DNA of 64,000 nt, taken from NCBI GenBank assembly GCA_965216755.1, contig CBDCGL010000011.1:576001-640000 (forward strand), written 5' to 3'. Positions within the stretch are counted from its first letter, which is position 1. The number at the start of each line of letters is the position of its first letter. Both the position numbers and the translations under genes were made by a program. Of this stretch, positions 13,377 through 49,304 are shown one piece after another. Origin of the DNA: Alphaproteobacteria bacterium (GTDB lineage Bacteria > Pseudomonadota > Alphaproteobacteria > UBA7887). Below the pieces are notes generated by a model. The model did no database searches, had not been told where the DNA came from, and was given only the letters and a program-made list of their open reading frames with translations.

Positions 13377-13416
13377 CGGCTGTTCTGGTTCACCGCTCTG
13401 CAGTGTGCTGTTCTAT

Positions 13417-32439: not shown

Positions 32440-33378
32440 ATGGAAGCGTTTGCGCCCAGCGCTCTACTGATCTTTGTCATCGCAGTCGTCATATTGTCCG
32501 CGGTGACTATTTATGCCGGGGTCAAAACCGTGCCCCAAGCCAATGAGTGGACTGTTGAACGTTTTGGGCGCTACACGCGCAGCTTGCGGCCAGGTTTGAA
32601 TTTCATCGTTCCGTACATGGATCGCATCAGTTACAGGCTGTCCATGAAGGAAACTGTCTTGGATATCCCAGCGCAGGACGTGATCACCTTTGACAACGCC
32701 ACCGTGACGGCTGATGGCGTTGTGTTCTTCCAGATTGTCGATTCGGCCAAGGCGGCATACGAGGTCGCAGATCTGGAACGGGCGATTACCAATTTGGCAC
32801 TCACCAACATCCGAACGGTGATCGGTTCCATGGCACTCGACGACGTGCTTTCCAAGCGCGACGACATCAACGACCGGTTGCTGGTTGTGGTCGACCAGGC
32901 CACCAACCCCTGGGGGGTCAAAGTAACGCGCATTGAAATCAAGGATCTGGCACCGCCTGCCGATTTGGTTGCGGCCATGGGACAACAAATGAAAGCCGAG
33001 CGCGAGAAGCGCGCAGAGGTGCTGGCGGCCGAAGGCGAAAAGCAAGCGGCGATCTTGCGCGCGGAGGGTCAAAAACAAAGCGCGATTTTGGAGGCGGAAG
33101 GTCGGCGCGAGGCCGCGTTCCGAGATGCCGAGGCGCGCGAACGCGAGGCGAAAGCCGAGGCGGACGCGACGACATCGGTTTCGGATGCGATCGCCAAGGG
33201 TGATGTGCAGGCGATTAACTATTTTGTCGCCCAACGCTATACCCAAGCTTTGGAACATGTCGCCGCCGCACCCAACCAGCGGGTTGTCTTGATGCCACTT
33301 GAAGCGACTAAGATCCTCGGCAGCCTGGGCGGTATCGCCGAGTTGGCACGGGCCTCGTTCGACGGCAAGACTGGATAA
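32440..33378 (+). CDS. qmcA: SPFH/stomatin-like protein
   Basis: VERFGRY, QDVITFDNA, WGVKVTRIEIKD and QMKAEREKRA coiled coil. Paired with NfeD. Confidence 0.9.
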   Translation: MEAFAPSALLIFVIAVVILSAVTIYAGVKTVPQANEWTVERFGRYTRSLRPGLNFIVPYMDRISYRLSMKETVLDIPAQDVITFDNATVTADGVVFFQIVDSAKAAYEVADLERAITNLALTNIRTVIGSMALDDVLSKRDDINDRLLVVVDQATNPWGVKVTRIEIKDLAPPADLVAAMGQQMKAEREKRAEVLAAEGEKQAAILRAEGQKQSAILEAEGRREAAFRDAEAREREAKAEADATTSVSDAIAKGDVQAINYFVAQRYTQALEHVAAAPNQRVVLMPLEATKILGSLGGIAELARASFDGKTG

Positions 33379-33383
33379 CAGCC

Positions 33384-33860
33384 ATGGATGAATTCATTGC
33401 CTGGCTTTGGCAAGTTTCTTACTGGCACTGGTGGGCGCTGGGCATATTTCTGCTCGCCATCGAGGTTTTTGTGCCCTCAACATTTCTGATTTGGCCGGGG
33501 ATGTCGGCGGGTGTTGTCGGCGTGATTGTGGCGTTCGTCCCCGATCTCGATTGGCGCATGCAAGTTCTGACGTTCGCCGTGTTGGCAATGGCGTCAACTG
33601 TGGCGTGGCTGACCTGGCTACGGCGCCATCCAACCCAGACCGATGATCCGACGCTCAATGTGCGGGCACAGCGCTATGTCGGTCGGCGTGTCACCCTGGC
33701 GGAGACATTGGTCAACGGTCGTGGCCGGATAAAATTGGACGATACATGGTGGCTCGTGGAAAGCGACGACAGCGGGTCGATTGAGGAGGGCGTGACAATC
33801 GAAATCACAGGTGCCGACAGCACGACCTTGAAGATCCAAGCCGTTGGACCGCAGGATTAG
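33384..33860 (+). CDS. NfeD/YbbJ family membrane protein
   Basis: WHWWALG..LLAIE, LNVRAQRYVG and GRGRIKLDDTWW (OB fold). Follows the SPFH gene. Confidence 0.9.
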   Translation: MDEFIAWLWQVSYWHWWALGIFLLAIEVFVPSTFLIWPGMSAGVVGVIVAFVPDLDWRMQVLTFAVLAMASTVAWLTWLRRHPTQTDDPTLNVRAQRYVGRRVTLAETLVNGRGRIKLDDTWWLVESDDSGSIEEGVTIEITGADSTTLKIQAVGPQD

Positions 33861-33889
33861 CGGCGGACGACTGTGATCCGCGCGACGAG

Positions 33890-34885
33890 ATGACCACCGA
33901 CGAACCGATCTTCGGCCTGTTGGAGGTGCGCGCCCTGCGCCGCGCGGGCACGTTGTCGGCTTCGCAATTCGCGCGTGCCGCACACACGGTCCGCGATCAC
34001 GGTCATTGGCGTCAATGGGCATCGTGGGCGTTGTTGGCACTGGGTGCCGGGCACGTGTTGGTCGGCATTGTGTTCTTTTTCGCTTACAATTGGGCGGACA
34101 TGCCCGCGATCGCCAAGTTTGTGGTGATCGAGGTCGGCATCGTCCTGGCCGCGGTGGCGGCCCTGTGGTGCGGCATCGTGCGTCCCGCCGGTCGCGCCCT
34201 GCTGATCGCCGCGTCGGTGCTGACAGGCGTGTTGTTGGCGGTGATCGGCCAAGTCTATCAAACCGGCGCCGATGCCTATGAGCTGTTTGTTGCTTGGATG
34301 GTGCTGATCGTGCCCTGGGCGTTGGCGTCGCGCGATGCCGGTCATTGGCTGTTGTGGCTGATCGTTGTCGATGCGGCGGCAAGTCTTTATGCGGCCCAAG
34401 TCCTGGTGCCCTTGGGCCTTTTCACTGCGACCAGAAGCGCCCTGGTGGTTACGGCCATACCGATTGTAGCTCTGGCCATTCGCGAGGGTTTGGTTACGCG
34501 TGGTTTCGCCTGGCCGGCGGCCGTTTGGACCCGGCATCTCCTTCTGTTCATCGCCTTGGTGCAGCTTTTTGTGATGGCTGTCGGGTTTGTGTTCAATCTA
34601 AACAACGATCCGCTGACGGTCATCTTGTTTGGGGCCGCATTGGCGATCGCTGCCGCGGTTTATGTATTCCTGCGCCCGGATCCCTTGGGCGCGGCGCAGG
34701 CCATCGGCTTTGTTGGGTTTTTTCTCATGGCTGTCGGTGCGCGCGCGATCTCGCAGCTGATCGGCTTCGACTTTGACCAGATCCCCCACGCGGTCGGCGG
34801 TCTTGGTTTGCTGACGGCCTGGTGTATCGCCGTGACCGTTGTCATGGCAAAGTTGCTCCTGCCGAAGCGGGCATCTGCCCGATGA
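33890..34885 (+). CDS. DUF2157-type membrane protein
   Basis: GIVFFFAYNW.DMP..AKF and LAVIGQVYQTGAD.YELF motifs. Confidence 0.85.
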   Translation: MTTDEPIFGLLEVRALRRAGTLSASQFARAAHTVRDHGHWRQWASWALLALGAGHVLVGIVFFFAYNWADMPAIAKFVVIEVGIVLAAVAALWCGIVRPAGRALLIAASVLTGVLLAVIGQVYQTGADAYELFVAWMVLIVPWALASRDAGHWLLWLIVVDAAASLYAAQVLVPLGLFTATRSALVVTAIPIVALAIREGLVTRGFAWPAAVWTRHLLLFIALVQLFVMAVGFVFNLNNDPLTVILFGAALAIAAAVYVFLRPDPLGAAQAIGFVGFFLMAVGARAISQLIGFDFDQIPHAVGGLGLLTAWCIAVTVVMAKLLLPKRASAR

Positions 34886-35922
34886 TGGCCATGACTGAAT
34901 TCTGCGCAGAGTTCGGGCTCGAACCCGCAGATGTCCGGCGGGCTCTTGACGCAGAGAGGGCATCATCGCGACACGACGCGGCCTGGTACGTTACGGCGTT
35001 GCTGGCAGTTGCCGCTTGGGTAACCGCCTTGGTCATGATCGGTTTCGCTTTCGCTTTGCTCTATTTCGTTATTGGCATCGAAGAACCGTCGGCGTCTTTT
35101 GCTTTATTTGGTGCGGTGCTTTTCCTGGCCGGCGACTCTTTGCTTGGCAGCAAAGAAAAGGGTGTATTTCGCGCGCAGTTGGGCACGGTGTTGTCGTCGG
35201 CCGGCCTGATCATGGTCGTCACCGGCGTCACTGTTGAAACGGAATCGATATGGTCCGGTGTTCTGGCCGCAGGTGTGTTGGCATCGGTCGTCGCATGGCG
35301 TGGACGGAGCCGAATATTACAGTTTGTGGCGTCAGCGACGGCGGTTGTCACGGTGGCACTCGCGCTTCTGGATGAATCACGTGATTTCATTGTGATTGCG
35401 GCAGCTTGTCTGACGGCTATAGGTGCGGTGATGCTGTTGCGGCCGCCGCGTCGGGATCTTGAACCGACCGCAATGGTGCTACTGTTTTGTGCGCCGGTGT
35501 TCTCAATATTTGGTTCGAACGCAATCGGATTCTATGCACAGGCAACAGAGTGGGTTTGGGTCGGCAAAGTCATGCTTATGGGCCTGTTCGTATACCTGGC
35601 CGCGACATTGTGGCGCCAGCATACGAGTGCGGTAATACGGCGGAATCTAGCGGTTGTCGCGGCCGTGGCTCTTTTTGCAGCGTTGTTGCTGCCTGTCGGT
35701 GGTGTGGCCGCTTTGGTGATAATGATGCTGGCCTACATCCTTGGCGCGCGCGTTTTGGCCGCGGCGGGCGTATTATGGGAGATCTTCTTCATCTCCCAAT
35801 TTTACTACGATCTGATCACAACATTGCTTAACAAATCATTGATCATGATAGCCGTCGGCGTGGCTACCATCGCGGCATGGGCATTTGTCTCTCGTCGTGT
35901 TGGCGCGCAAGAGGCGTCATGA
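34882..35922 (+). CDS. DUF4401-type membrane protein
   Basis: Polytopic protein with WYV..LL at the N-terminus and FYYDL.TTLL.KS at the C-terminus. Lies between DUF2157 and GDYXXLXY genes. Confidence 0.78.
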   Translation: MMAMTEFCAEFGLEPADVRRALDAERASSRHDAAWYVTALLAVAAWVTALVMIGFAFALLYFVIGIEEPSASFALFGAVLFLAGDSLLGSKEKGVFRAQLGTVLSSAGLIMVVTGVTVETESIWSGVLAAGVLASVVAWRGRSRILQFVASATAVVTVALALLDESRDFIVIAAACLTAIGAVMLLRPPRRDLEPTAMVLLFCAPVFSIFGSNAIGFYAQATEWVWVGKVMLMGLFVYLAATLWRQHTSAVIRRNLAVVAAVALFAALLLPVGGVAALVIMMLAYILGARVLAAAGVLWEIFFISQFYYDLITTLLNKSLIMIAVGVATIAAWAFVSRRVGAQEAS

Positions 35923-36422
35923 AAAAGGTTCGAATCGCATCGGTCCTGTTGGGTCTCGGATTGGTCCTTGGCGTGGCCAACATGAACATTTTGGCGAAAC
36001 AACGAACAATCAATAATGGACGGCCGGTTCTGCTGCCATTGGCGCCTGTCGACCCGCGTTCTTTGATTCAGGGGGACTATATGCGACTCCGCTATGAGAA
36101 CGAGGTGTTTCCGGATAAGGAAATGGCCAAGGATCTGCCACCGAAAGGCGCAATTATACTCGTGGTTGACGAACACAATGTGGGCCGTTTCGCGCGTCTC
36201 GACGACGGTGGTGGTTTGTCGGACCAAGAAGTTCGTGTGCGTTATCGCCTGCGCGATGCGGCAGGTCGCATGAGGCTCGGCGCCGAATCTTTCTTTTTTC
36301 AAGAGGGCGATGCTACGCTGTACCAAGACGCCGAATATGGTGTGTTGCACGTAGGCGCCCAGGGCGCGACCGTCCTGGTCGGGCTGGCGGACGCAGATCA
36401 TAGACTGATCGAACGGCCATAG
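35919..36422 (+). CDS. GDYXXLXY domain protein
   Basis: LAPVDPRSLIQGDYMRLRY and FFFQEG. Confidence 0.9.
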   Translation: MKKVRIASVLLGLGLVLGVANMNILAKQRTINNGRPVLLPLAPVDPRSLIQGDYMRLRYENEVFPDKEMAKDLPPKGAIILVVDEHNVGRFARLDDGGGLSDQEVRVRYRLRDAAGRMRLGAESFFFQEGDATLYQDAEYGVLHVGAQGATVLVGLADADHRLIERP

Positions 36423-36447: not shown

Positions 36448-37794
36448 CTACAACCATTCGTCTTTGATCGTGAAACCAGTATAGGCGGCCCGCAAATAGG
36501 TCTTGCGCAATGCTGGCGCTGGAAAGCGCGGCATCGGACCGCGTAGCACGGCTGGTATCCGTTCATCGGCGCGTTGCCCATTCGCTATCAGGTCGGCAAG
36601 GGCGTCGCCACACCAACTGGCCATCGCAACCCCGCTGCCGTGATACGCGAGGGACGTCCAGGCATTCGGCATGTCGCCGATCGGGCCAACATATGGCACC
36701 AGTTTGTAAGCAAGGCAGACAAAGCCAAACCAGAAACGTTCGGTTTCGACCAGCCGCCACGCAGGAAACATCGCCTCAAACGCGCGACGCAGTTTCCGGC
36801 GCATGCGCTGTACGGCGTGCGGCGCCGCATCGATCCCGCCGCGACCGCCAAACAAAAACCGGCCATCCGGCAAAAGACGAAAGTAATGAAGCAGGTTGCG
36901 CGTATCGCGCGCCATGATGTGGGTGGTCCAGCCCTGGGTCTCGCGTTCGACATTCGTGAGTGGACGGGTGACCAAGATATTGGACATGGTTGGCAATGTG
37001 CGACCGCCATGCCACGGCGGCAAATTCTCGGACCCGTAGCCATTCGTCGCCACAACCACCCGACGCGCTCGGATCTCGCCATGTGGCAATGTCAAGGTGT
37101 GCCGGTCACCGTCGCAACGCCAGATTTGGACAGGGCTGCCGCCGTGAATGCGTGCGCCTGCGTCGGCGGCGACGTCTGCCAATCCGCGCGCATAAGTCAG
37201 CGGTTGGACGCCAAAACCAATGGGCACATGGACGCCGGCGTGGAACTCCGGCCCGGCCACCCCAATCGACGCCAGATCGGCCCGGTTGAAGGTCGGCGAG
37301 TCGACGCCGAGAACATCGCGCACGGCGGCCGCCTCCGCATGCAACGCCGGGATCCGATTGAGACGATGCGCGAGCGTCAATTCACCTACGCCACAAACAT
37401 CCGCGTCCACGCTGTTTTTGGCGAGAAAAGAACGGACATGTTCCACAGCCGCCTGTTCGGTGCGCAAGAAATGGGCCGCGTTTTCGGTGCCATAACGCCG
37501 CGCGAGGGTGTCATGAGGTAACTTCGTGGAGCCCAAACAGCAGAAACCGCCGTTGCGTCCTGACGCGCCCCAACCCGGCGCGCCGCTATCGACCACGCGT
37601 ACGTCCATACCGTGCCGCCTAACGAGTGCCAACGCTGCCGACAGCCCCGTGAATCCGGCTCCAATAATGGCAATATCGCACGAGACCGAGTTCTGAAGCG
37701 GGGGGAAATCATGGCGCGATGGCGTCGCGGTGGCCAACCAATGACTGTCGACCGCCACCGACGTGTCAAACGCGCTGTTGTGATAGAGCCGCAT
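36448..37794 (-). CDS. FAD-dependent oxidoreductase (DadA/PuuB-like amine oxidase)
   Basis: IIGAGFTG, GWGASGRNGGF, YFRLLPDGRFLFGG and YHGSGV. Start moved to ATG 37794. Confidence 0.88.
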   Translation of the reverse strand: MRLYHNSAFDTSVAVDSHWLATATPSRHDFPPLQNSVSCDIAIIGAGFTGLSAALALVRRHGMDVRVVDSGAPGWGASGRNGGFCCLGSTKLPHDTLARRYGTENAAHFLRTEQAAVEHVRSFLAKNSVDADVCGVGELTLAHRLNRIPALHAEAAAVRDVLGVDSPTFNRADLASIGVAGPEFHAGVHVPIGFGVQPLTYARGLADVAADAGARIHGGSPVQIWRCDGDRHTLTLPHGEIRARRVVVATNGYGSENLPPWHGGRTLPTMSNILVTRPLTNVERETQGWTTHIMARDTRNLLHYFRLLPDGRFLFGGRGGIDAAPHAVQRMRRKLRRAFEAMFPAWRLVETERFWFGFVCLAYKLVPYVGPIGDMPNAWTSLAYHGSGVAMASWCGDALADLIANGQRADERIPAVLRGPMPRFPAPALRKTYLRAAYTGFTIKDEWL

Positions 37795-37977
37795 GTTCGA
37801 ACTTCCCCGACCCAGTGCGCAAGCCGACGCTTGATTGCCAGCCGCCGTTTGGCACGCGTCACAATTCTTACTGAAAATATCCAACCGTTTGAATAAAATA
37901 ACCAAATAAGACGCGTCTGTGGAACGGCGCCACCGGTCAAGACGGCGCGTGTATCACAAGCCGGAGGGAGGATCAGA

Positions 37978-39039
37978 ATGGGCAAGTTCGTGTGTGGCAA
38001 AGCCGCCATGGCGGTTGTCGCGGTGGGAATTGTCGTAGGGTTGAGCGGCGGCGGGCGTGCCGCCGACAAAATCGTTATCTCAAACTGGGACGGCTACATG
38101 CCGGCCGACATGCTGGAAACTTTCACGGCGGAAACGGGGATTGAAGCGGAACTCTCAGTTCACGGCACCAATGAGGAGATCATGGGCAAGGTGGTCGCCG
38201 GGGGCGGTGTCGGCTATGACGTACTCTTTGTGTCGTCTCCGTTTGCCGAAGCGCTCAACGCATTGGGCCTGGTCGCGGAAATCGACCACAATCAAGTCCC
38301 AAATATGACCAACTTGTACCCAGAGGCCATGGCGCTGGAGTACGATCCCGGCAACACATTCTCGGTCCCCTATGCTTGGGGCACGACGGGCTTGTGCTAT
38401 CGCAGCGATATGGTTTCCGGAACGCCCGCCAGTTGGAACGACCTTTTGCAGCCGTCAGAGGATCTGAGTGGTAAGATCACCATGCTGTCCACCGACCGCT
38501 GGCTGCTGGGCGCGGCGTTTCTGTCGCTGGGTTACTCCGTTAATACAACCGACGACGATGAAATCGCGGCTGCGAGGGATTTGTTGATTTCAGCCAAGCA
38601 AGAGCTCTTGTCTTATGACGACACGACTTTCTACGCGAAGCTCGTTTCGGGCGAGGCATCGTTGGTGCATGCGTGGGACGGCTGGTGCAACTACGGCATC
38701 GCCGAAAACGCAGACATCAAATACGTGATCCCTTCTGAGGGCACGGACTTGTGGGTCGATACTATGGTTGTCGCGGCGGCGTCTGAAAACAAGGAGGCCG
38801 CACACGCGTTCATAGATTTCGTCTTGCGCGCGGACAATGGGGCGTGGGTACCATCCAACATCCTTTACAAAGTACCCAACAAAGCGGCCATGAATGCGTT
38901 GGACCCGGCTCTGGTTGAGCAATATCCAAACCTCGGCATGACGCCGGACGAGTTGATGACTCAAGAGCAACTACGCGACGTCGGCGCGACCCAAAAAGCC
39001 TATACCAAAACTGTTACCGAAGTTTTGGCATCGAACTGA
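37978..39039 (+). CDS. Polyamine-type ABC transporter substrate-binding protein (PotD/PotF-like)
   Basis: Signal peptide, NWDGYMP, VPYAWGTTG, YVIPSEG..LWVD and AHAFIDF. Confidence 0.9.
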   Translation: MGKFVCGKAAMAVVAVGIVVGLSGGGRAADKIVISNWDGYMPADMLETFTAETGIEAELSVHGTNEEIMGKVVAGGGVGYDVLFVSSPFAEALNALGLVAEIDHNQVPNMTNLYPEAMALEYDPGNTFSVPYAWGTTGLCYRSDMVSGTPASWNDLLQPSEDLSGKITMLSTDRWLLGAAFLSLGYSVNTTDDDEIAAARDLLISAKQELLSYDDTTFYAKLVSGEASLVHAWDGWCNYGIAENADIKYVIPSEGTDLWVDTMVVAAASENKEAAHAFIDFVLRADNGAWVPSNILYKVPNKAAMNALDPALVEQYPNLGMTPDELMTQEQLRDVGATQKAYTKTVTEVLASN

Positions 39040-39105
39040 GACGGCGCCGCGCGCGTGTGGTAACGGCTCGTTGATGGAAAGGCGCATCAGATAACGCGGG
39101 CGAAT

Positions 39106-39954
39106 TTGCGTGATCTGGTCTTGTTGGGACCGGGGCTGGGATGGCTGGCCCTGTTCCTGATCGTGCCATGCGGCATAGTCTTCTTTTATGCTTTCTTTGA
39201 ACGCGGCGTTTATGGCGGTATCGACTACGTTTTTACGTTTGGTAATTTTGTCCGGGCGGTCGATCCGATCTACTTGTCGATATTATTGAGTTCAGCAAGA
39301 ATTGCTGGGATAGCGACGTTGGTCGCCTTACTGATCGGTTATCCAACAGCGTACGCGATTTCCAGGGCGCCGGAAGGACGTCAAACTGGCTATTTGGTGC
39401 TGGTCATGCTCCCGTTTTGGAGCAACTATCTCATACGAACCTATGCCTGGATTGTGCTTCTCAATCGTGAAGGGCTGGTCAATCGTGGCTTGGCCGGTCT
39501 GGGTATTGTCGATGAGCCACTGCCGTTACTTTACAATGAGTTCGCCGTTGTGACGGGGCTTGTCTACAATTATCTGCCCTTTGTTGTGTTGGCTATCTAT
39601 GCGTCGATTTCGCGGCTAAATCGAGAGGTACTGGAAGCATCCGAAGATCTCGGGGCGCCTTCATTCATGACCTTTTGTCGCGTTATGTTGCCGTTGACCC
39701 TGCCGGGCGTGGCTGCCGGCGCCGTGTTTGTGTTCGTCTTGTCAATCGGCAACTTCATTACGCCGGATTTACTGGGCGGCGGTCGGCTGCAGATGGTCGG
39801 CAACCTAATCTACGACCAATTTCTTACTGCGCGCGATTGGCCGTTTGGTGCCACGCTCAGTTTCATTCTGATCGGTATCATGATGATGTTACTTTTTGCG
39901 CAGGCCGTATTGGTACGCCGCGCGCAGGGCGATCGGGCCCCGGCCGATGCGTGA
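39106..39954 (+). CDS. Polyamine-type ABC transporter permease (PotB-like)
   Basis: LPFWSNYLIRTYAW and the LEASEDLGA EAA loop. Start uncertain. Confidence 0.9.
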   Translation: MRDLVLLGPGLGWLALFLIVPCGIVFFYAFFERGVYGGIDYVFTFGNFVRAVDPIYLSILLSSARIAGIATLVALLIGYPTAYAISRAPEGRQTGYLVLVMLPFWSNYLIRTYAWIVLLNREGLVNRGLAGLGIVDEPLPLLYNEFAVVTGLVYNYLPFVVLAIYASISRLNREVLEASEDLGAPSFMTFCRVMLPLTLPGVAAGAVFVFVLSIGNFITPDLLGGGRLQMVGNLIYDQFLTARDWPFGATLSFILIGIMMMLLFAQAVLVRRAQGDRAPADA

Positions 39955-40735
39955 TGCCATGGTATTGCGGCTGTGGTTAGGCGCGCATATGGGCCTTGTC
40001 TACGCGTTTCTCTACATTCCAATTGGCGTTTTAATGGTACTGAGTTTCAACGAGTCCGGACTGCCGACCGCTTGGACCGGGTTCTCGTTTCATTGGTATG
40101 TGGCGCTGACTGAAAATACCGCTGTTCTCAAGGCCACGCTTAATACGGTAATCGTTGCCACCGCGTCGACAATCTTGTCGACTGCGTTGGGCACTTTGTT
40201 GGCGATTGGTGTGGAAATCCGTCGACGCGGGTCGGGATTGGAGGCGGTTCTTTTCGCGCCGATGATCATTCCTGATATCGTGTTGGCTATCGCCCTGTTA
40301 TCCTTTTACACATTGTTGAATGTGACGTTGGGACTGCATTCGATCATTCTAAGTCATGTCGTGTTCAACATTGCATTTGTCTGCGCGGTCGTGCGAACGC
40401 GACTGCGACATTTTGATTGGTCGATTGTTGAGGCATCCATCGATCTTGGCGCCAGCGAATTCCGAACGTTTTTCCGCGTCACTCTACCGATGATTTTTCC
40501 CGGTGTACTTGCCGGGGCCTTGCTGGCTTTCACATTGTCTGTCGACGAATTTATTATCGCGTTTTTTACTGCCGGTGCCGGCCAGGATTCCACGACCTTG
40601 CCAATGCAGATTTATGCAATGATTCGATTTGGTGTGACTCCAGAGATTAATGCCATGGCGACGATCGTCATGGCGGTAAGTTTCACTTTGGTGCTGATGG
40701 CTCAAAGTCTGCATCGGGACACGTTGAGCGGATGA
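39947..40735 (+). CDS. Polyamine-type ABC transporter permease (PotC-like)
   Basis: FLYIPI, EASIDLGA, AFTLSVDEF and GVTPEINA. Confidence 0.9.
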   Translation: MRDAMVLRLWLGAHMGLVYAFLYIPIGVLMVLSFNESGLPTAWTGFSFHWYVALTENTAVLKATLNTVIVATASTILSTALGTLLAIGVEIRRRGSGLEAVLFAPMIIPDIVLAIALLSFYTLLNVTLGLHSIILSHVVFNIAFVCAVVRTRLRHFDWSIVEASIDLGASEFRTFFRVTLPMIFPGVLAGALLAFTLSVDEFIIAFFTAGAGQDSTTLPMQIYAMIRFGVTPEINAMATIVMAVSFTLVLMAQSLHRDTLSG

Positions 40736-41808
40736 CCGCCAAGGCGATCATCACCGTGCACAATGTCACGAAGTGCTTTGGCTCCGTGACGGCCGTCGAG
40801 TCGGTGAATTTGGATGTGCGTGAGAATGAGTTTTTCGCGTTGCTGGGACCCAGTGGTTGCGGCAAGACCACTTTGTTGCGCGTCATCGCTGGGTTTGAAA
40901 GGCCGGATACCGGACGCATTTTGTTGGACGATTGGGATGTCACAGCGGTGCGCCCGAACAAGCGACCGATAAACTTGATGTTCCAGTCCTATGCACTGTT
41001 TCCACATATGTCCGTCGAGAGGAACATCGCCTATGGCCTGGAGATGGAGGGCAAGGCCAAGGGCGAAATCGCGGCGCGCGTGGCGGCAATGATGGACATG
41101 ACGAAATTGGCGGCGCTGGCGGGACGCAAGCCGGATCAGCTGTCGGGCGGCCAACGGCAACGCGTTGCCCTGGCGCGCGCGTTGGTCAAAAGGCCTCGGG
41201 TGCTGCTGCTCGATGAGCCGCTCGGCGCACTCGACAAGAAGTTGCGTGAAGAAATGGAACTTGAACTCAAGCGCATGCAGGATGAGATCGGGATTACATT
41301 CATTGTTGTGACGCACGACCAGGATGAAGCGTTGGTCATGGCGGATCGAATCGCGGTGATGCATGATGGTCGCGTTGTTCAAGTCGGTACGCCGCATGAT
41401 CTTTACGAGGCGCCGACAACACGGTTCGTCGCATCATTTATCGGACGCATGAATTTCTTTGACGGCACATTGGCGGACGAGGGCGTGCTTGTTGACGGGC
41501 ATGGTGTCTTGCGCGGGCATGTCGGTGCCAAGGCGAAGCGCGGCGGGCGCGCGACCTTGGCGGTACGCCCGGAACGTGTCGCCGTCGGCCGTGATCGGGG
41601 TGACATGGCGCACAATGCAGTGGCCGGAACAATTGCAGACGTTGCCTATCACGGTCAGGATATCGTGGTGCACGCAGCCGTGGACGGAACGGAGACCGTG
41701 TTGATGGCGCGGCTGCCGGTGCGTGGATTGGCGGACGAACCTTGGCACACAGGTGATCGTATTTGGTGTCTTTGGGACCCCGCCGATTCTCGCGTGCTGA
41801 CTGATTGA
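40732..41808 (+). CDS. Polyamine-type ABC transporter ATP-binding protein (PotA-like)
   Basis: GPSGCGKTT, FQSYALFPHM, LSGGQ and LLLDEPLGALD. Confidence 0.93.
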   Translation: MTAKAIITVHNVTKCFGSVTAVESVNLDVRENEFFALLGPSGCGKTTLLRVIAGFERPDTGRILLDDWDVTAVRPNKRPINLMFQSYALFPHMSVERNIAYGLEMEGKAKGEIAARVAAMMDMTKLAALAGRKPDQLSGGQRQRVALARALVKRPRVLLLDEPLGALDKKLREEMELELKRMQDEIGITFIVVTHDQDEALVMADRIAVMHDGRVVQVGTPHDLYEAPTTRFVASFIGRMNFFDGTLADEGVLVDGHGVLRGHVGAKAKRGGRATLAVRPERVAVGRDRGDMAHNAVAGTIADVAYHGQDIVVHAAVDGTETVLMARLPVRGLADEPWHTGDRIWCLWDPADSRVLTD

Positions 41809-41861
41809 TCAAGGCTGCGGGGAAACGCCAGAATAGAATTCCGAGATGGGGATAGGGTGGA

Positions 41862-43151
41862 ATGAACGACAAAAAGATCATCGCATTTTTTCCGGAAGCG
41901 GCCTTTGGACCAGCATTAAACTCTGTCGGGATCGCACAGGCATGCGAGAAACGCGGCCATAAGGCGGTGTTTCTCACCGATCCAGGCATGGCCGGCGTTT
42001 ATGCCGGCTATGGCTTCGAGGAACACATGGTCAACATGTCGGAACCCATGGATCCGGAGGCGATGGCCAAATATTGGTCCGACTTTATCAATGGCCATAT
42101 TCCTAATTTCAATAAGTCACCGTATGATCAGATTGACAATTATGTGAAGGAATGTTGGGAAGCGATCGTCGATACGGCCCTTTGGGCCGAGAAAGATTTG
42201 CCGGCTGTGTTGGCGCGTGTGAAGCCGCATATTGTTTGTGTCGATAACGTGATTTTGTTTCCGGCCATTAAACGCTATAGCCGCGAAAATAAAGTGCCTT
42301 GGGTGCGGATTATTTCATGCTCGGAGAACGAAATCGTTGATCCAGACATTCCGCCACATCTGTCGGGCTGCGGCGTGGAAGACAAATCATGCTTTGAACG
42401 ATTTGAACGAAAGTTCAATGAAGTCATTAAACCAAGCCACGATGCCTTTAACGCGTTTCTCAAGGAATGTGATGAGGACCCGTATCCGATCGGGCAGTTC
42501 TTTGAAGCATCACCTTATTTGAACCTTCTACTTTACCCGGAACCGGTAAAATTCCAAAGGCGAACGCCGCTCGATCCGAAGCAATTCCAGTATTTGGAAG
42601 GCTGCGTACGCGACGAAGCGGACTATCAGATTCCGGATTTCGGATCCTATAATGACAAGCCGTTGCTCTATGTCAGCTTCGGCAGTTTGGGATCGGGCGA
42701 CACGGATCTGCTGAAGCGTCTGATCGCGGCAGTTGGTGCCATGCCGCTGCGCGCATTGGTCAATGTTGGCGACTACAAAGACGCCTACGACTCGCTTCCG
42801 GCGAACATTGTTATTGACAGTTGGTTTCCGCAGCCCTCGTTGATCCGCCAAGTTGATGGGGTTATCCACCACGGCGGCAACAACAGCTTTAACGAGTGCC
42901 TCTATTTCGGCAAGCCGGCAATCATCATGCCGTATGTTTGGGATGGTCACGACAACGCCACACGCGTTCAGGAAACAGGCCACGGATTTCATATGCACCG
43001 GGCGGATTGGACCGATGACGCATTGGCCGCGAAAATCGATGCTATGCTGAATGATACATCCATGCGCGCCAAACTGGCGGAGACTTCGGCGCATATGCAA
43101 AGTCGCCACGGGCCAACCAAGGCAGCCGATCTACTCACGGCACTCTTGTGA
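41862..43151 (+). CDS. GT-B fold, GT1/MGT-like glycosyltransferase
   Basis: YVSFGSLG and the UDPGT-like signature WFPQ...HHGGNNSFNECLYFGKPAIIMPYVWDGHDNA. Confidence 0.88.
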   Translation: MNDKKIIAFFPEAAFGPALNSVGIAQACEKRGHKAVFLTDPGMAGVYAGYGFEEHMVNMSEPMDPEAMAKYWSDFINGHIPNFNKSPYDQIDNYVKECWEAIVDTALWAEKDLPAVLARVKPHIVCVDNVILFPAIKRYSRENKVPWVRIISCSENEIVDPDIPPHLSGCGVEDKSCFERFERKFNEVIKPSHDAFNAFLKECDEDPYPIGQFFEASPYLNLLLYPEPVKFQRRTPLDPKQFQYLEGCVRDEADYQIPDFGSYNDKPLLYVSFGSLGSGDTDLLKRLIAAVGAMPLRALVNVGDYKDAYDSLPANIVIDSWFPQPSLIRQVDGVIHHGGNNSFNECLYFGKPAIIMPYVWDGHDNATRVQETGHGFHMHRADWTDDALAAKIDAMLNDTSMRAKLAETSAHMQSRHGPTKAADLLTALL

Positions 43152-43504
43152 ACCCGGGAATGCGGACAGCTTTGTTGCAGAGCCCCGACACCACGACCGA
43201 TTTGGTCGACTGGGGCGTGATTCCGACAATGATCGAAGGCGAATCGCGGACGTCGGGCAAGCTGCTGTTCAAGGACGATTCCGGATCGGGCGAAGCCGGG
43301 TTGTGGGTGTGCACGCCCGGATATTGGGCGTGCGAGGTAACGCACGATGAGTTTTGTCACTTTTTGCAGGGCAGTTGTACCTACACGCACGAATTGGGCG
43401 AGGTGCTCGAAATCACACCAAACACAAGCGCCTTTTTTCCAGCCGGATGGAAGGGCACGTGCCGCGTCCACGAGACCGTGCGAAAGGTCTACATGATTCG
43501 GTAA
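43148..43504 (+). CDS. Cupin (EutQ/DUF861-like)
   Basis: GLWVCTPG, DEFCHFLQG and FFPAGWKG...VRKVY. Overlaps the GT stop. Confidence 0.88.
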   Translation: MNPGMRTALLQSPDTTTDLVDWGVIPTMIEGESRTSGKLLFKDDSGSGEAGLWVCTPGYWACEVTHDEFCHFLQGSCTYTHELGEVLEITPNTSAFFPAGWKGTCRVHETVRKVYMIR

Positions 43505-43507
43505 GCC

Positions 43508-45022
43508 ATGGCTGTTTTTGATCCGCAAACGCCACAGATTTATGTTGATGGCGATTATTTGCCACTGGATGGGGTCGAGCCTCTCGATATTGTCGATCCG
43601 GCGAGCTTGAATGTTGTTGGTCGTTCGGCCCATTGCCCCGCCGATTACTTGGCTACCGTGATCGAGAGCGCCAATGCGGCCCAAATGAAATGGCGACAGA
43701 CCGATACCAAGACTCGCGCCGCATGCTTGCATCGCGTCGCCGACGCAATCGAAAAGTCGAGTTTCCATGACGTGGCCTTGCTCATGGTACGTGAGATGGG
43801 AAAGCCCTATCCGGAAGCCGTCGGCGAATTGGCCAATGTCGCGCCGGTGTTCCGTTATTTTGCCGAAATGGCCCGCGATCAGGCGGGCAAGATCGCCGGG
43901 ACAACGCAGCCCGGGTCATTCCAATATACTCGCGACGAGCCCTATGGTGTCAGCGTCCATATCGTACCATTTAATTTCCCCATTCTGCTCATGTGCTGGA
44001 CTGTGGCGGCGTCTCTTGCGGCGGGGAATGCGTGCATTGTTAAGCCGTCCGAGGCGACATCTTTGTGTACGCTCCGGTTTATGGCCCATTTCAATGAACT
44101 GGCACCTGGTTTGGTGAATTGCGTCGTGGGTGGTGCGTCAACCGCGCAGGCGTTGATCGAGAATGCGGGAACGCACATTGTTGCCTTTACCGGCGGAGTT
44201 GACGCTGGGCGCAAAGTGAACATGGCTTGTGCGCGTTTGATGAAGCCAGCGGTGATCGAAGCTGGCGGCAACGATGCCATGATCATCAGCGAGTCGGCGC
44301 CGTTGGATGTCGCGGTGCCGGGCGCCGTCACGGCGGCGTTTCACTTGTCCGGCCAAGTTTGCACGTCGACCGAGCGCCTTTTCGTGCACGATACAATACA
44401 TGACACTTTTGTCGCGCGTTTTGTCGCGGCCACGCGAGCGTTGCGCATCGGTCCCGGTTTGTCGAAAGCAGAGGTGGGGCCCCTGGTGAGCCGGGCCGCA
44501 CGCGAGAAGGTGATTGATCTGGTCGAAGGCGCAATTGCAGAAGGCGCGACGCTGGCCTGTGGCGGCGGTGTGCCGTCGCAACATAACACCGGCTGGTATT
44601 TTGAACCGACTGTACTCATCGATGCCCGCCCGGACATGACGATAATGCAGAACGAGATGTTCGGACCGGTCGTTGCCGTTTGCCGGATCAGTTCATTTGA
44701 AGAGGCGCTCCGCCTTGCCAATCAATCTCGTTATGGTCTCGGAGCATCAATTTTCACTTCCGACATGGCGGAAGCCCAGCGCGCCTCTGAAATGCTTGAG
44801 GCGGGCATGGTCTGGATCAACAATCCATTGATTGACAATGATGCGCTGCCGTTCGGAGGATGGAAGTTATCGGGTATCGGCCGCGAGCTCGGGCGCCACG
44901 GGTTGGACGCCTTTCGCCAAACGAAAATGGTGGTTACGGATGCTGTCCCAACCGTGCAAGAGTGGTGGTATCCCTATCCAGACGACTGGTTTTATGATGG
45001 CGCTGGCCGTAAATTTGACTGA
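43508..45022 (+). CDS. NAD(P)-dependent aldehyde dehydrogenase
   Basis: PFNFP, VKPSE, FTGG, EAGGND (Glu), GQVCTS (Cys), EMFGPV and PFGGWK. Confidence 0.93.
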   Translation: MAVFDPQTPQIYVDGDYLPLDGVEPLDIVDPASLNVVGRSAHCPADYLATVIESANAAQMKWRQTDTKTRAACLHRVADAIEKSSFHDVALLMVREMGKPYPEAVGELANVAPVFRYFAEMARDQAGKIAGTTQPGSFQYTRDEPYGVSVHIVPFNFPILLMCWTVAASLAAGNACIVKPSEATSLCTLRFMAHFNELAPGLVNCVVGGASTAQALIENAGTHIVAFTGGVDAGRKVNMACARLMKPAVIEAGGNDAMIISESAPLDVAVPGAVTAAFHLSGQVCTSTERLFVHDTIHDTFVARFVAATRALRIGPGLSKAEVGPLVSRAAREKVIDLVEGAIAEGATLACGGGVPSQHNTGWYFEPTVLIDARPDMTIMQNEMFGPVVAVCRISSFEEALRLANQSRYGLGASIFTSDMAEAQRASEMLEAGMVWINNPLIDNDALPFGGWKLSGIGRELGRHGLDAFRQTKMVVTDAVPTVQEWWYPYPDDWFYDGAGRKFD

Positions 45023-45024: not shown

Positions 45025-45948
45025 CTACAGATACGTACAATCACGGCAAGCCGGAACACAAAGGCGCGTCTTCGCATCGGCGCGAATGGCGCGTTGGGTC
45101 GGCGCGTTAAATATATCCAACAAGTTCTCATCGGCGACATTGCCGATTGGCCATTCGCCCCGGCCGTCCATGCAGCACATGGTCACCGCGCCTGTCGCCA
45201 TGATGGACAAGTCGAACCAACGGCGGCACGGTAAATCGGGTGCCTCGGCAAGCATGGCGCGTTCATCCACTTGTCCTTTCCAGTCTTTCCGCATGCTAAG
45301 CGTTGTCGTGAATGCTGGAAACATGTTGCGGCCCCACTGCATGAACTCTTCGTCCGTCGGGCTCCCGTCCATGACACGATTGATTGTAACCTGGTGCGGA
45401 AATGTACCCTCCGCCGTGAGTCGGTGCAGGAGTCGCAATCGGTCAACCGTCCGGTCGAAGGGCATGTGCATAAGTGTTTCATAGGGTTCCCGCCTGTGGT
45501 CGTTGAGTGAAATGACCAACGAGGTCACGTTCTCAATCGTGGCGAGGCGCCGCAAGACTGGCTCTGTAAATGCGGAGCCGTTCGAAAATAATGATAGTTG
45601 GGCATTCGGCAGCCGCACATTGACTTGGTGAAGAACCTCTACAAGTCGTTTGTCGAGAAATGGTTCGTTGACTTTGTATGGCGCTAGGGTGAAGGGGACT
45701 GATTGAGGAATGGCACTGAGATCGTCGATGATCTTCTCGATCAGTGCATCTGACATGCGTATTCCCTTGCGATCCAACGTCGGATACGGACAGAAATTGC
45801 ATGCGGCGTTGCAGACAGCCAGCGTCTCAAGATGCACGTGGCGCGGCCAGTCAATGTAAGACGATTCGCGATATGCTCTTACATCGGAGACGATGCTCCG
45901 AATGTGCTCCAAAATCCAAGCGCCGTCCATCGGCCGAAACCACGTCAA
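45025..45948 (-). CDS. Radical SAM protein with SPASM/twitch domain
   Basis: CNAACNFC and C-terminal PC...GAVTMCCMD...IGNV...C..ACRDC. Start may be 45930. Confidence 0.88.
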   Translation of the reverse strand: MTWFRPMDGAWILEHIRSIVSDVRAYRESSYIDWPRHVHLETLAVCNAACNFCPYPTLDRKGIRMSDALIEKIIDDLSAIPQSVPFTLAPYKVNEPFLDKRLVEVLHQVNVRLPNAQLSLFSNGSAFTEPVLRRLATIENVTSLVISLNDHRREPYETLMHMPFDRTVDRLRLLHRLTAEGTFPHQVTINRVMDGSPTDEEFMQWGRNMFPAFTTTLSMRKDWKGQVDERAMLAEAPDLPCRRWFDLSIMATGAVTMCCMDGRGEWPIGNVADENLLDIFNAPTQRAIRADAKTRLCVPACRDCTYL

Positions 45949-46024
45949 ATTGTTGGGGTTCTAGCCTCGGATGATAGTCTTTCGAATTATTTAACCATAT
46001 CAAGCAATTGAAATATAAAAGGAA

Positions 46025-47242
46025 TCAGTCTTTTGCCTTGTTGTACGGCGAATAGTGGGCACCAACTGCGGTGATCTCGTAGTCGATTTCATCGCGCTCG
46101 CGTTCGAGATAGTCGGCGACCGCCCGGCGGAACCCTGTGTCGGCGATCCAATGCGCGCTGTAAGTCAGGCGTGGCAAATAACCACGATGGACCTTGTGTG
46201 GTCCCTGTGCGCCGGCTTCGACATGCTTCAGCCCGTGGTCAATAGCAAATTCTATAGCTTGGTAATAACACGCTTCAAAATGAAGACAATCGTGGTCCTC
46301 GATGCAGCCCCAATTTCGACCGTAAAGTGTATCTGTGCCGATAAAGTTGAGCGCGCCGGCAATATAGCGGCCACCGCGGCGGCACATCACAAGGGCAACC
46401 TTGTCAGCCATCTTGTCATGGATAATATCGAAAAAACTGCGGGTCAGGTAGGGTGATCCCCACTTGCGGCTCCCGGTATCCGTATAGAATCGGAAAAAGG
46501 CATCCCAATGTTCGGGCTTGAGATCGGAACCCGTCAAAACCTGTATGTCGATACCGGCGGCGACGGCGGTTGCGCGTTCTTTGCGGATCGTCTTGCGCCG
46601 GCGTGCCGTGAGCACGCGCAAGAAATCGTCGAAACGCTCATAGTTGTCATTATGCCAGTGGAATTGCTCACCGGTCCGCCGTAGAAAGCCGCACTCGCCC
46701 ATCAGCCGCCATTCATCTTCGGTCGGAAAAGTCACATGAAGCGACGAAACACCGAACCTCTCGCCCACTTGCACCGCCGCGTTGATCAATGCCAGCTGGT
46801 GACGTTCGCGAAGCGGGCCCGGGCGCGTCAATAGACGCGGGCCGGTGACCGGCGTAAACGGTACCGATGCCTGCAGTTTTGGATAGTAGCGGCCGCCGGC
46901 GCGTTCAAAGGCGTGTGCCCATGAATGGTCGAAGACATACTCGCCCTGAGAATGGTTTTTGAGATACAGCGGCAGGGCACCGAGCAGTTCGCCGTCGCTG
47001 TCTTCCAAGAGCACATGCTGGGGCAGCCAGCCGGTCTCGGCTGCGCAAGAACCGCTTTCTTCCAAGGCCAGAAGAAAGGCATGACTCAAAAATGGGTTGT
47101 CGCTGCCCGCACAGGCGTCCCAGGCGGCTTCCTGAACCTGGCCTAGGTCGTCAACCGTGCGCGCGGTCATCGCCTGGCGCTCATGTGACTCGACCGGCCT
47201 TGCGGGTTGCACGCGCGCGGCGTGGCGTCGCTCAGCGGTCAT
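46025..47242 (-). CDS. FemAB-like GNAT family protein (DUF482)
   Basis: NPFLSHAFL, HSQGEYVFDHSWA, YYPKLQ..VPFTPVTG, LHFEACYYQ and EAGAQG. Start may be 47170. Confidence 0.9.
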   Translation of the reverse strand: MTAERRHAARVQPARPVESHERQAMTARTVDDLGQVQEAAWDACAGSDNPFLSHAFLLALEESGSCAAETGWLPQHVLLEDSDGELLGALPLYLKNHSQGEYVFDHSWAHAFERAGGRYYPKLQASVPFTPVTGPRLLTRPGPLRERHQLALINAAVQVGERFGVSSLHVTFPTEDEWRLMGECGFLRRTGEQFHWHNDNYERFDDFLRVLTARRRKTIRKERATAVAAGIDIQVLTGSDLKPEHWDAFFRFYTDTGSRKWGSPYLTRSFFDIIHDKMADKVALVMCRRGGRYIAGALNFIGTDTLYGRNWGCIEDHDCLHFEACYYQAIEFAIDHGLKHVEAGAQGPHKVHRGYLPRLTYSAHWIADTGFRRAVADYLERERDEIDYEITAVGAHYSPYNKAKD

Positions 47243-47635: not shown

Positions 47636-48109
47636 CTAGGCCACTGAAATTTCGAAGATCCCGTCGGCCTCGACAGCCACATTGCGGGGCAACACATTGG
47701 TTCCGACGGCGAACCGAGCATGCCGACCCGCGTCGCCGAACACATCGACCATCAGATCGGAAATTCCATTGGCGACTTCCGGCTGTCGATCAAACATATC
47801 GGGGCAATTGATGAACACGCCCAGTTTGACGCACCGACGCACGCGGTCCAAGTCGCCGTCGCAGGCGACCTTGAGTTGTGCAAGCATGTTGAGACCGCAC
47901 AGGCGCGCGGCGCTTTTTCCTTCATCAACCGTGAAATCCTTGCCGACCTTGCCAACGTAGCGTACTTCGCCATTCCAAAACGTTATTTGGCCGGCGATGA
48001 ACACAAGGTTCCCGGTGGTCACGAATGGTATGTAGTTCGCGGCCGGCGTGGCCGGCTGCGGCAGCTCAATACGACTTTCGGCGAGGCGTGCGTCGATTGT
48101 ACCTGGCAT
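47636..48109 (-). CDS. RidA/YjgF family protein
   Basis: PAANYIPF, FIAGQ, VANGISDL, GRHARFAVG and LPRNVAVE. Start moved to ATG 48109 after GGAGG. Confidence 0.9.
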   Translation of the reverse strand: MPGTIDARLAESRIELPQPATPAANYIPFVTTGNLVFIAGQITFWNGEVRYVGKVGKDFTVDEGKSAARLCGLNMLAQLKVACDGDLDRVRRCVKLGVFINCPDMFDRQPEVANGISDLMVDVFGDAGRHARFAVGTNVLPRNVAVEADGIFEISVA

Positions 48110-48272
48110 GGTCGATCCTCCGAATGCATCCGTGCCACCATAACGCCGTCGGGCGCCGTGGTTCCAGTGAACCGTGGCTTGCGCCATGGTGGCAGCCACA
48201 CGTTCGGCGACAGTTCACCATGATTCATTGTATACTGCTTCGGTTACGACTGACGGGGCAGCCGAACTTTAT

Positions 48273-49304
48273 ATGACAACGCCAAAGCTCGATGGTCTGC
48301 ATATGCCGGCCGAATGGGATGCGCACAGCAAGTGTTGGATGGCGTGGCCGAGCAATCGCGCGGTCTGGGGCGAAACGTTGGTGGCGGCGCAAGCTGCCTA
48401 TATCAATGTCGCGCAGGCCATCGCGGATTTCGAACCGGTGACAATCGTTGCCGATCCGGCGTCCGCCGCCGATGTCTCACTTCGCGGTGGGCGCGGGATC
48501 AGCGTTTTTGCCTGTCCGCACGACGACGCTTGGATCCGTGACAATGGGCCCACATTTGTCACAGATGGCGCTGGCGGCCTGGCCGGTGTCGATTGGCAAT
48601 GGAATGCATGGGGCGAGATCTACCCGGACTACGAAAACGATGCGGCGGTTGCGCGCGAGATCCTGTCGAACCTCAGAATGCGGCGCTACGAAGCGCCGTT
48701 GGTGTTGGAAGGGGGATCAATCCACGTCGACGGCGAAGGCACAGCCTTGACGACCGAGGAATGCCTGCTCAATCCGAACCGCAACGCGAAATTGGATCGC
48801 CACGCGATCGAGGACCTCTTACGTGCCTATTTGGGCGTTGAAGCAATCATCTGGCTTGCGGGTGGCCTACAAGACGACGAAACCGACGGCCACGTCGACA
48901 ACATCGCGTGTTTCGCCCGGCCAGGAGTTGTGATCGTGCAGTCGGAAGCCGATCCGAACGACGGCAACTACACGGTCCTTCAAGAGAATTTGGCTCGTTT
49001 GCGGGCGGCGACGGATGCGCGGGGGCGGCAAATTGACATTATTGAACTGCCGCAGCCGCGCCGCGTTGACCATGGCGAGGCGCGATTGGCGTTGTCATAT
49101 GTGAATTTCTATTTGGCCAACGGAGCCGTGATTGCGCCGCAATTCGACGACGCCGAAGACTCGCGTGCGTTGAACTTGTTGAAAGACACGTTCCAAGACC
49201 GCAGCATCGTGCCGGTCGATGTGCTGGACATCGTAAAGGGCGGCGGTGGCATTCATTGTATCACGCAGCAGCAGCCAGCCGGCGAGGCATTGCCGCCGCA
49301 ATAG
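48273..49304 (+). CDS. aguA: Agmatine deiminase
   Basis: MPAEW, DAWIRDNGP, LEGGSIHVDGEG, DETDGHVDN, SYVNFY and GGGGIHCITQQQP. Confidence 0.92.
   Translation: MTTPKLDGLHMPAEWDAHSKCWMAWPSNRAVWGETLVAAQAAYINVAQAIADFEPVTIVADPASAADVSLRGGRGISVFACPHDDAWIRDNGPTFVTDGAGGLAGVDWQWNAWGEIYPDYENDAAVAREILSNLRMRRYEAPLVLEGGSIHVDGEGTALTTEECLLNPNRNAKLDRHAIEDLLRAYLGVEAIIWLAGGLQDDETDGHVDNIACFARPGVVIVQSEADPNDGNYTVLQENLARLRAATDARGRQIDIIELPQPRRVDHGEARLALSYVNFYLANGAVIAPQFDDAEDSRALNLLKDTFQDRSIVPVDVLDIVKGGGGIHCITQQQPAGEALPPQ

Follow-up and report, generated by a model that had tools for sequence, protein, structure and literature searches.

Why should a glycosyltransferase stand in the middle of an operon that looks built for the uptake and oxidation of an amine? 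The question is raised by a locus at positions 36448–45022 of a 64,000-nucleotide stretch of DNA from an alphaproteobacterium (UBA7887; assembly GCA_965216755.1, contig CBDCGL010000011.1, positions 576,001–640,000), which is referred to below as the window. Here a flavin adenine dinucleotide (FAD)-dependent oxidoreductase is encoded divergently from genes for a periplasmic substrate-binding protein (SBP), two permeases and an ATPase of a Pot-like ATP-binding cassette (ABC) transporter, a family-1 glycosyltransferase (GT1; hereafter GT), a DUF861 cupin and an aldehyde dehydrogenase (ALDH). In sea water, soil and brines, polyamines and related amines rank among the major sources of nitrogen and carbon, and the bacterial routes known to us either shield the amine first, by gamma-glutamylation or acetylation, or attack it unprotected. 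The reading we prefer, at a probability of roughly 0.35, is that the locus would be a catabolic module for a polyamine-like amine, similar in logic to the Puu pathway, with a sugar in place of glutamate as a temporary and recyclable protecting group.

Gene content and comparison with the Puu pathway

Gene identities were established from the list of open reading frames (ORFs) and from Pfam and NCBIfam profile scans covering 16 ORFs between 32362 and 47745. All eight genes proposed in the initial annotation of this DNA were found where it had placed them, and the tight operon it described, running from the SBP to the ALDH with an overlap between GT and cupin and a 3-nt gap between cupin and ALDH, was recovered in full (Table 1). 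The same annotation had spoken of an FAD amine oxidase; the protein is indeed a flavoenzyme encoded divergently from the operon, but it belongs to the PuuB/DAO type (PF01266, 174.9 bits) and not to the PF01593 amine-oxidase family. BLASTP aligned it with E. coli K-12 PuuB over the full length (26% identity, 434 columns, E = 2e-32), and the ALDH with E. coli PuuC (32% identity, E = 4e-72). The best NCBIfam matches of the ALDH were betaine aldehyde dehydrogenase (386 bits) and aminobutyraldehyde dehydrogenase (359.6 bits), both below cut-off.

The locus thus recalls the Puu/Pau gamma-glutamylation pathway (E. coli PuuP-PuuA-PuuB-PuuC-PuuD) in its amine import, its PuuB-type oxidoreductase and PuuC-type ALDH, and in an overall logic of modifying, oxidising twice and unmasking. 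It differs in two respects: the importer is an ABC system, whereas Puu uses a PuuP-type symporter, and the GT and the DUF861 cupin occupy the cluster in place of a glutamine-synthetase-like ligase and a GATase1 hydrolase. Neither a Gln-synt domain, as in a PuuA-type ligase, nor a GATase1 domain, as in a PuuD-type hydrolase, was detected among the 16 ORFs, in agreement with the earlier remark that the GT stands where the ligase would be expected. The module would accordingly work like Puu, yet lacking both ligase and amidotransferase-type hydrolase it is no member of that pathway. PuuA homologues are encoded elsewhere in the genome (39% and 35% identity, at C11:4.50 Mb and 3.30 Mb, the window lying at 0.58–0.64 Mb), so the sugar route would be an additional one, for a different amine.

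What this amine might be is suggested by the transporter. All four of its proteins score best on polyamine models, and its four-component architecture, together with the best family and structure matches of all four, resembles the PotABCD and PotFGHI importers. The resemblance has limits: the ATPase is the sole part above a cut-off, and only for the broader potA subfamily model TIGR01187 (387.3 vs 355.6 bits), whereas the SBP and both permeases fall below the equivalog cut-offs. The best Protein Data Bank (PDB) matches of the SBP are polyamine-binding proteins. Alignment with the PotD-type structure 7xjm revealed that NWSEY is replaced by NWDGY and MDDAREV by LSTDRWL, with FWMD kept as LWVD; the Trp residues of the aromatic box are retained, as is the W-x-D motif, and the acidic positions are changed, the functional roles of the aligned PotD residues being those that we presume. 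These pocket substitutions do not vary among 35 orthologues (identity of 55% or more), in which the motifs NWDGY, VSSPF, MLxTDRW, AWDGW and LWxDT are invariant or nearly so. Because of this invariant pocket signature of its own, we read the SBP as a putative cation-binding pocket with one specific ligand other than spermidine or putrescine.

At the level of gene structure, the operon shows 4-nt overlaps at two junctions (permease/ATPase and GT/cupin) and gaps of 66 nt between the SBP and the PotB-like permease, 53 nt between ATPase and GT and 3 nt between cupin and ALDH. A strong ribosome-binding site, GGAGGGAGG, lies 5' of the SBP start codon at 37978, and the divergent intergenic region contains two sigma-70-like matches on the plus strand (37849–37878 and 37871–37899), which are consensus matches only. 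The oxidoreductase ORF opens with TTG and spans 36448–37905; the ATG at residue 38 of the ORF is the likely start and gives the shorter coordinates of Table 1. In the PotC-like permease the family match begins at residue 25, so that the true start is probably later than 39896. On the other side of the operon, genes for a radical-SAM/SPASM protein (307 aa) and a FemAB_like protein (PF04339, 531.8 bits; 45025–47242, minus strand) converge on the ALDH with a 2-nt spacer; since the radical-SAM/SPASM gene converges on the ALDH, the operon ends at 45022. These two genes are not kept beside the GT in other loci. Terminator-like sites over the scanned stretch were not above shuffled sequences (14 vs 12.2 ± 3.6).

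Table 1. Genes and intergenic region of the locus, with window coordinates and profile scores
Feature	Position	Strand	Remarks
PuuB-like FAD-dependent oxidoreductase (DAO family)	36448..37794	-	divergent from operon
Divergent intergenic region, 183 nt	37795..37977		promoter-like sites for operon
PotD/PotF-family periplasmic binding protein (SBP)	37978..39039	+	PotD model 162.8 bits (NCBIfam equivalog cut-off 582)
PotB-like ABC permease	39106..39954	+	PF00528; PotB model 248.4 bits (NCBIfam cut-off 348)
PotC-like ABC permease	39896..40735	+	PF00528; PotC model 240.5 bits (NCBIfam cut-off 326)
PotA-type ABC ATPase with TOBE domain	40732..41808	+	TIGR01187; PF00005 and PF08402
GT1 (UGT/MGT-like) glycosyltransferase	41862..43151	+	PF06722, PF00201, PF04101
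DUF861/Cupin_3 protein	43148..43504	+	PF05899 at 61.6 bits (cut-off 23.5)
NAD(P)-dependent ALDH, betaine-/amino-aldehyde type	43508..45022	+	PF00171 at 477.6 bits

Conservation of the gene neighbourhood

To what extent the GT belongs with its neighbours was assessed in a scan of one genome per species, which gave 545 pattern matches, 507 of them encoding a GT relative; the best 80 loci were analysed. Linkage was counted by tblastn with the window proteins in those loci that had enough flanking sequence, and ORFs of the 80 loci and the window, called by codon-usage score, were clustered. The GT family is very conserved: its best 120 database clusters, drawn from many lineages, show 71–79% identity from end to end. 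The cupin is encoded within 2.5 kb downstream of the GT on the same strand in 63 of 73 loci, and in 40 of 73 the gene just upstream of the GT is one for a Pot-like ATPase or permease. An orthologous SBP was found within 5 kb of the GT in 36/63 loci, and an ALDH of at least 50% identity within 5 kb downstream in 20/57 or within 8 kb on either side in 17/40. A second GT paralogue (GT2, 45–50% identity) was present in 13/40 loci, and a DAO oxidoreductase of at least 40% identity lay within 8 kb in 5/40. The neighbourhood predicted in the initial annotation therefore stands for the cupin, the Pot-like ABC system and the ALDH, which are linked to the GT in Proteobacteria, metagenome-assembled genomes (MAGs) of Actinomycetota and haloarchaea, but not for the oxidase, which is rarely linked.

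Distant representatives preserve the arrangement. In locus L089, whose GT is 56% identical, SBP, two permeases, ATPase, GT, two cupins, ALDH and DAO oxidoreductase follow one another in one direction. Plasmids of Natrialba magadii and Natronorubrum aibiense encode a GT (59–61% identity), a cupin (60–64%) and an ALDH (58–59%) as a triad 3' of an IclR regulator, with a Pot-type ABC transporter, an aminotransferase and FAD oxidoreductases within about 10 kb. Overall, ALDH orthologues of 58–68% identity accompany the GT, haloarchaea included. A sister GT clade from another phylum, 34–38% identical, stands back-to-back with SBP/PermB/PermC orthologues (52–60% identity) in 2 of 9 loci examined over ±8 kb. 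Linkage of GT homologues to these genes, whose absence would, by the initial annotation, have refuted its proposal, thus recurs and extends to the sister clade; the module is real and conserved.

Its distribution is patchy. The GT was detected at E ≤ 1e-100 in 6 of 400 other sampled genomes of the window's phylum. Several copies of the family are on plasmids. In the phylum of MAG G402, 29 of 401 genomes had a GT match at E ≤ 1e-80, two of the main clade (G402 included) and 27 of the sister clade. Patchiness and plasmid copies fit a mobile accessory catabolic island.

This recurrence bears on the simplest alternative, that an ordinary polyamine uptake operon stands by chance beside an unrelated GT and cupin that modify some small molecule. 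The acceptors that GT1 enzymes decorate are usually lipophilic secondary metabolites or xenobiotics, and in some genomes the GT does stand among unrelated genes. Against this, the linkage recurs in several gene orders and in two domains of life, the genes are translationally coupled, and the GT is 56–79% identical across lineages, unlike fast-evolving detoxification GTs. Already disfavoured, a chance neighbourhood appears to us extremely improbable.

Clustering also revealed more variable partners, among them a GntR/FCD regulator (26 loci), a saccharopine-dehydrogenase-like enzyme (11 loci) and an APH-family kinase (5 loci). Small groups of loci carry an iron-type alcohol dehydrogenase (Fe-ADH) with a major facilitator superfamily (MFS) transporter, a B12 diol dehydratase, Rieske oxygenases, a dimethylglycine dehydrogenase (DMGDH)-like enzyme, a sulfotransferase or an acetylpolyamine-amidohydrolase-like protein. 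In three alphaproteobacterial MAGs (L027, L053 and L054, about 11700–14340), fused large and medium and separate small subunits of a B12-type propanediol/glycerol dehydratase are encoded right after the GT and cupin, with a second Pot-like ABC system and a short-chain dehydrogenase/reductase (SDR) beyond the dehydratase genes. In L028, L032 and L044 (about 11800–12720), a Sulfotransfer_1 protein follows the GT and cupin, a DAO oxidoreductase is directly divergent from the GT, and PPK2 lies beyond.

Some profile matches would point to an aminophosphonate, namely 2-aminoethylphosphonate or a conjugate, as the substrate, in which case the module would belong to phosphonate catabolism. The best NCBIfam match of the window's oxidoreductase is the putative aminophosphonate oxidoreductase TIGR03329, that of the GntR regulator is the phosphonate-associated regulator TIGR03338, and the ATPase scores on PhnT2; in one alphaproteobacterial MAG (L017, 16438–18455), the 2-aminoethylphosphonate-pyruvate transaminase PhnW (492.9 vs cut-off 296) and the phosphonatase PhnX (329 vs 220) are encoded two genes after the ALDH. 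The three former scores, however, are far below cut-off (178.4 vs 632.8, 76 vs 271 and 373.5 vs 457.7 bits, respectively), the SBP reaches 21.1 bits on PhnS (cut-off 395.3) as against 162.8 on PotD, and PhnW and PhnX adjoin the cluster in just 1 locus. The 16 ORFs scanned around the window's cluster yielded no domain of the PhnA, PhnX or C-P-lyase type, and we consider an aminophosphonate substrate very unlikely.

Glycosyltransferase, cupin and the possible fate of a sugar

Can the GT transfer a sugar to an amine at all? The protein matches PF00201 and PF06722 above cut-off, and AlphaFold2 (AF2) modeling gave a GT-B fold with a mean confidence (pLDDT) of 92.9. Its closest solved relatives are the spider-mite UGT203A2 (7lvy/7mco) and UGT202A2 (6pnt, 8sfy): the best Foldseek match was Tetranychus urticae UGT203A2 (7mco; template modelling (TM) score 0.89, spider-mite matches spanning 0.81–0.89), and the GT family profile searched against the PDB identified UGT203A2 (E = 1.4e-56) and UGT202A2 (E = 1.2e-31). 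Excerpts of the published account of TuUGT202A2 describe a His25-Asp140 catalytic dyad and uridine diphosphate (UDP)-glucose contacts by His340, Ser343, Asn344, Ser345, Glu348, Asp364 and Gln365, and report that spider-mite UGTs were acquired from bacteria (PMC10731231). In the HMMER alignment, the contacts named in those excerpts correspond to H337, N340, N341, S342, E345, D361 and G362 of the GT, the first six identical or similar. The UDP-sugar motif, HHGGNNxxxE...P...D.HDN, is nearly identical in the mite enzymes and the GT, but Gly362 takes the place of the Gln of the sugar-binding DQ pair in the main clade and in GT2.

The acceptor side differs more strongly. Asp140 of UGT202A2 corresponds to the invariant D128, whereas the dyad His has no counterpart: His25 of UGT202A2 falls in an insert state, the UGT203A2 His aligns with Pro17 (both in HMMER alignments), and no His occurs in residues 1–32. 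In an alignment of 32 GTs (8 of the main clade, 6 GT2 paralogues and 18 of the sister clade), the loop [FM]-P-E-x-[AS]-[FY]-G-[PAS], without His, is present in 32/32 sequences of the three clades; Pro11-Glu12, Asp128-Asn129 and the HGGNN...E...WD motif are invariant. The sister clade retains the canonical WDQ, and the main and GT2 clades read WDG-H, so that the sugar used may differ between clades. From these alignments the donor site looks functional and the acceptor chemistry non-canonical. The genomic context is likewise a catabolic one, as opposed to the detoxification or natural-product tailoring of family-1 UGTs. As to origin, the GT clade and its sister may be near the donor lineage of the mite UGTs, which do have the catalytic His. 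For both the GT and the cupin, the ESM Atlas offered no more than generic names.

The cupin is a small single-domain fold (AF2 model, pLDDT 94.4). Its best structural match is 3bcw, a DUF861 protein of unassigned function (TM 0.86), and other DUF861 structures without assigned function and EutQ are also among the best matches; cupin-fold nucleoside phosphorylases (PpnP) match at TM ~0.6, which is a lead only. The classical HxH motif is absent, and the invariant residues include E49, E68, H71 and Y79. There are two cupin subtypes, and in tandem pairs the window's type stands second. Complex prediction for GT and cupin with two alignments gave scores of 0.00 and 0.00, which are evidence neither way. 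Full-text literature searches, with subscription journals not covered, found no described function of DUF861. Three other settings were considered and set aside as ill-suited to the conserved gene set: diol or ethanolamine microcompartment functions (EutQ-like), opine, Amadori or fructosamine catabolism, and natural-product tailoring.

A possible fate of the sugar emerges from some of the clusters. An APH-family kinase is encoded between the cupins and the ALDH in L017, L045, L052, L066 and L088, and by ORF calls directly after the GT in L019, where tblastn detects a cupin between the two. Its best NCBIfam match is the anomeric MurNAc/GlcNAc kinase AmgK in 4 of 4 tested (204–246 bits vs cut-off 500). 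On both haloarchaeal plasmids, a ROK kinase and a phosphohexomutase come directly after the ALDH, in Natrialba with best matches to glucokinase (159 vs 500) and archaeal GlmM (288 vs 439); this link rests on two related Natrialbaceae plasmids. The AmgK-like kinase of the proteobacterial clusters and the ROK kinase with mutase would be two non-homologous ways of turning a free sugar into a sugar-1-phosphate, a precursor of nucleotide sugars. The presence of a kinase, or of a kinase and a GlmM/PGM-type mutase, beside the triad recalls AmgK/MurU-type and ROK-plus-mutase salvage, with the difference that the scores stay short of the equivalog cut-offs; a nucleotidyltransferase was not seen in the clusters. 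LacI-type regulators adjoin the GT in L111 and L113, and in L008 one lies at a distance of two genes. Although they occur in a minority of clusters, such features would be expected if a sugar were released and then re-activated for the GT.

We therefore hypothesize the following sequence for the sugar-protected route. The Pot-like ABC system would import a specific polyamine-like amine, and the GT, in the place of PuuA, would move a sugar from a UDP-sugar onto it, probably onto nitrogen; activation of the amine nucleophile by the invariant Glu12 or Asp128 in place of the absent His is plausible. The PuuB-like flavoenzyme, or a transaminase or other enzyme in other lineages, would oxidise the free amino end to an aldehyde, which the ALDH would turn into the acid. 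The cupin, in the place of PuuD, would rearrange or remove the sugar, and the freed sugar would return to the UDP-sugar pool via its 1-phosphate. Extended to both domains, the proposal is that bacteria and haloarchaea share one catabolic logic, in which a His-less GT1 enzyme N-glycosylates the imported amine, the DUF861 cupin removes the sugar hydrolytically or phosphorolytically after oxidation of the free end, and the sugar is re-activated via sugar-1-phosphate; in this specific form we hold it as possible but doubtful.

The initial annotation had left two directions for the GT, capping of the amine or removal of a sugar from an imported glycosylated amine. Capping is favoured, on inferred chemistry, because some clusters add enzymes that would form a sugar-1-phosphate. 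In the reverse scenario, a ready sugar-amine conjugate or a cationic amino sugar would be imported, the GT would run backwards (glycoside + UDP -> UDP-sugar + aglycone) or the sugar be salvaged otherwise, and oxidase and ALDH would degrade the amine part. GT1 reactions are reversible, and a good leaving group would make the absent general acid/base His unnecessary. The LacI-type regulators and the sugar-phosphate enzymes of some clusters are consistent with such a role, as is the SBP, in which LSTDRW occupies the acidic positions of the PotD-type MDDAREV with Trp for Glu and the Trp could stack on a sugar ring. However, reversal would give the UDP-sugar directly and leave an anomeric kinase or ROK kinase and mutase without need, the transporter parts score best on polyamine models, and we are aware of no naturally abundant glycosylated polyamine by which the spread over marine, soil and hypersaline organisms could be explained. 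We regard reversal as rather unlikely.

The absent His and the variable partners also suggest that GT and cupin might act later, on the aldehyde or acid end, trapping a reactive or cyclising amino-aldehyde or forming an acyl-glycoside from the carboxylate; the common theme would then be aldehyde handling and not amine capping. The DAO oxidoreductase, class-III aminotransferase, Fe-ADH, saccharopine-dehydrogenase-like enzyme, B12 diol dehydratase and AFOR of the various clusters could, by family type, all produce or use up an aldehyde. Second to the cupin, the ALDH is the enzyme most often found with the GT, the GT2 paralogue has an ALDH of its own, and a carboxylate acceptor, needing no general base, would fit the lack of His. 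Yet the GT gene lies directly 3' of the ABC ATPase and tracks this SBP even in the sister clade, and no precedent for such GT chemistry in catabolism is known to us. Action at the aldehyde or acid end therefore seems quite unlikely.

Several observations weigh against a sugar cap and keep our estimate for it low. N-alkyl glycosylamines are hydrolytically labile and would make a poor cap unless quickly rearranged or processed, and with the catalytic His absent, ordinary GT activity cannot be assumed. An oxidase stands near the GT in few loci (those 5/40, plus L089), and seven marine gammaproteobacterial loci (L016, L018, L020–L022, L036 and L046) have the GT with no cupin, ABC system or ALDH nearby, several of these contigs being short. 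The 80 loci are the top matches of one clade, about 20 of them from Rhizobiaceae, so the fractions reported above overstate independence. The Natrialba plasmid additionally encodes a glutamine-synthetase-family protein and a type-1 glutamine amidotransferase, a Puu-like set, and its GT-cupin-ALDH triad could act after this complete-looking gamma-glutamyl set. Sugar-1-phosphate enzymes occur in a minority of clusters (AmgK-like kinase in 5/81) and score below family cut-offs. The window's own cluster has neither the AmgK-like kinase nor the ROK kinase with mutase; the nearest ROK-family gene (PF00480, 246 bits; 54467–55408, minus strand) begins 9.4 kb beyond the ALDH and is too distant to be a cluster member, though of interest in view of the ROK kinase beside the haloarchaeal triad.

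Novelty and other genes in the window

The initial annotation knew of no described pathway with this logic, and our full-text literature searches, with subscription journals not covered, likewise found no glycosyltransferase-based amine pathway; the pathway is probably new. If the proposal is true, it would introduce a new protecting-group chemistry into primary catabolism and give a function both to an orphan cupin family and to a GT1 clade encoded by at least 507 species genomes. It would be the first function both for this DUF861 clade and for the bacterial GT clade that, among solved structures, is closest to the horizontally acquired spider-mite UGTs, and this closeness may bear on the origin of the mite enzymes. 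Enzymes that make or cleave sugar-amine bonds would also become available.

Among the genes around the locus, a Porphyromonas-type peptidyl-arginine deiminase family protein (PF04371, 415.9 bits; 48174–49304, plus strand) is encoded 3 kb downstream of the operon, adjoining a YjgF-like protein (47636–48199, minus strand); the family includes agmatine deiminases, so that the neighbourhood holds a further gene related to polyamines. A pyridoxal-phosphate (PLP) enzyme of the Orn/DAP/Arg decarboxylase family (29266–30480, plus strand) is encoded about 6 kb upstream of the oxidoreductase, and two alpha/beta hydrolases come after it. On the strand opposite to the oxidoreductase, the stretch directly upstream of it (32362–36422, plus strand) is a run of membrane-protein genes for Band7/SPFH, NfeD, DUF2157, DUF4401 and GDYXXLXY proteins.

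Farther away in the window, a second DAO-family FAD oxidoreductase gene overlaps the start of one for a PEP_mutase-family protein (PF13714; 15760–18086, plus strand), a pairing that may be related to phosphonate or oxaloacetate-type chemistry. Genes for the DctQ and DctM components of a tripartite ATP-independent periplasmic (TRAP) transporter stand beside three tandem DctP binding-protein genes on the other strand (7161–12592). A 616-aa protein encoded at 20711–22561 (minus strand) combines a caspase (Peptidase_C14) domain with a bacterial SH3 domain.

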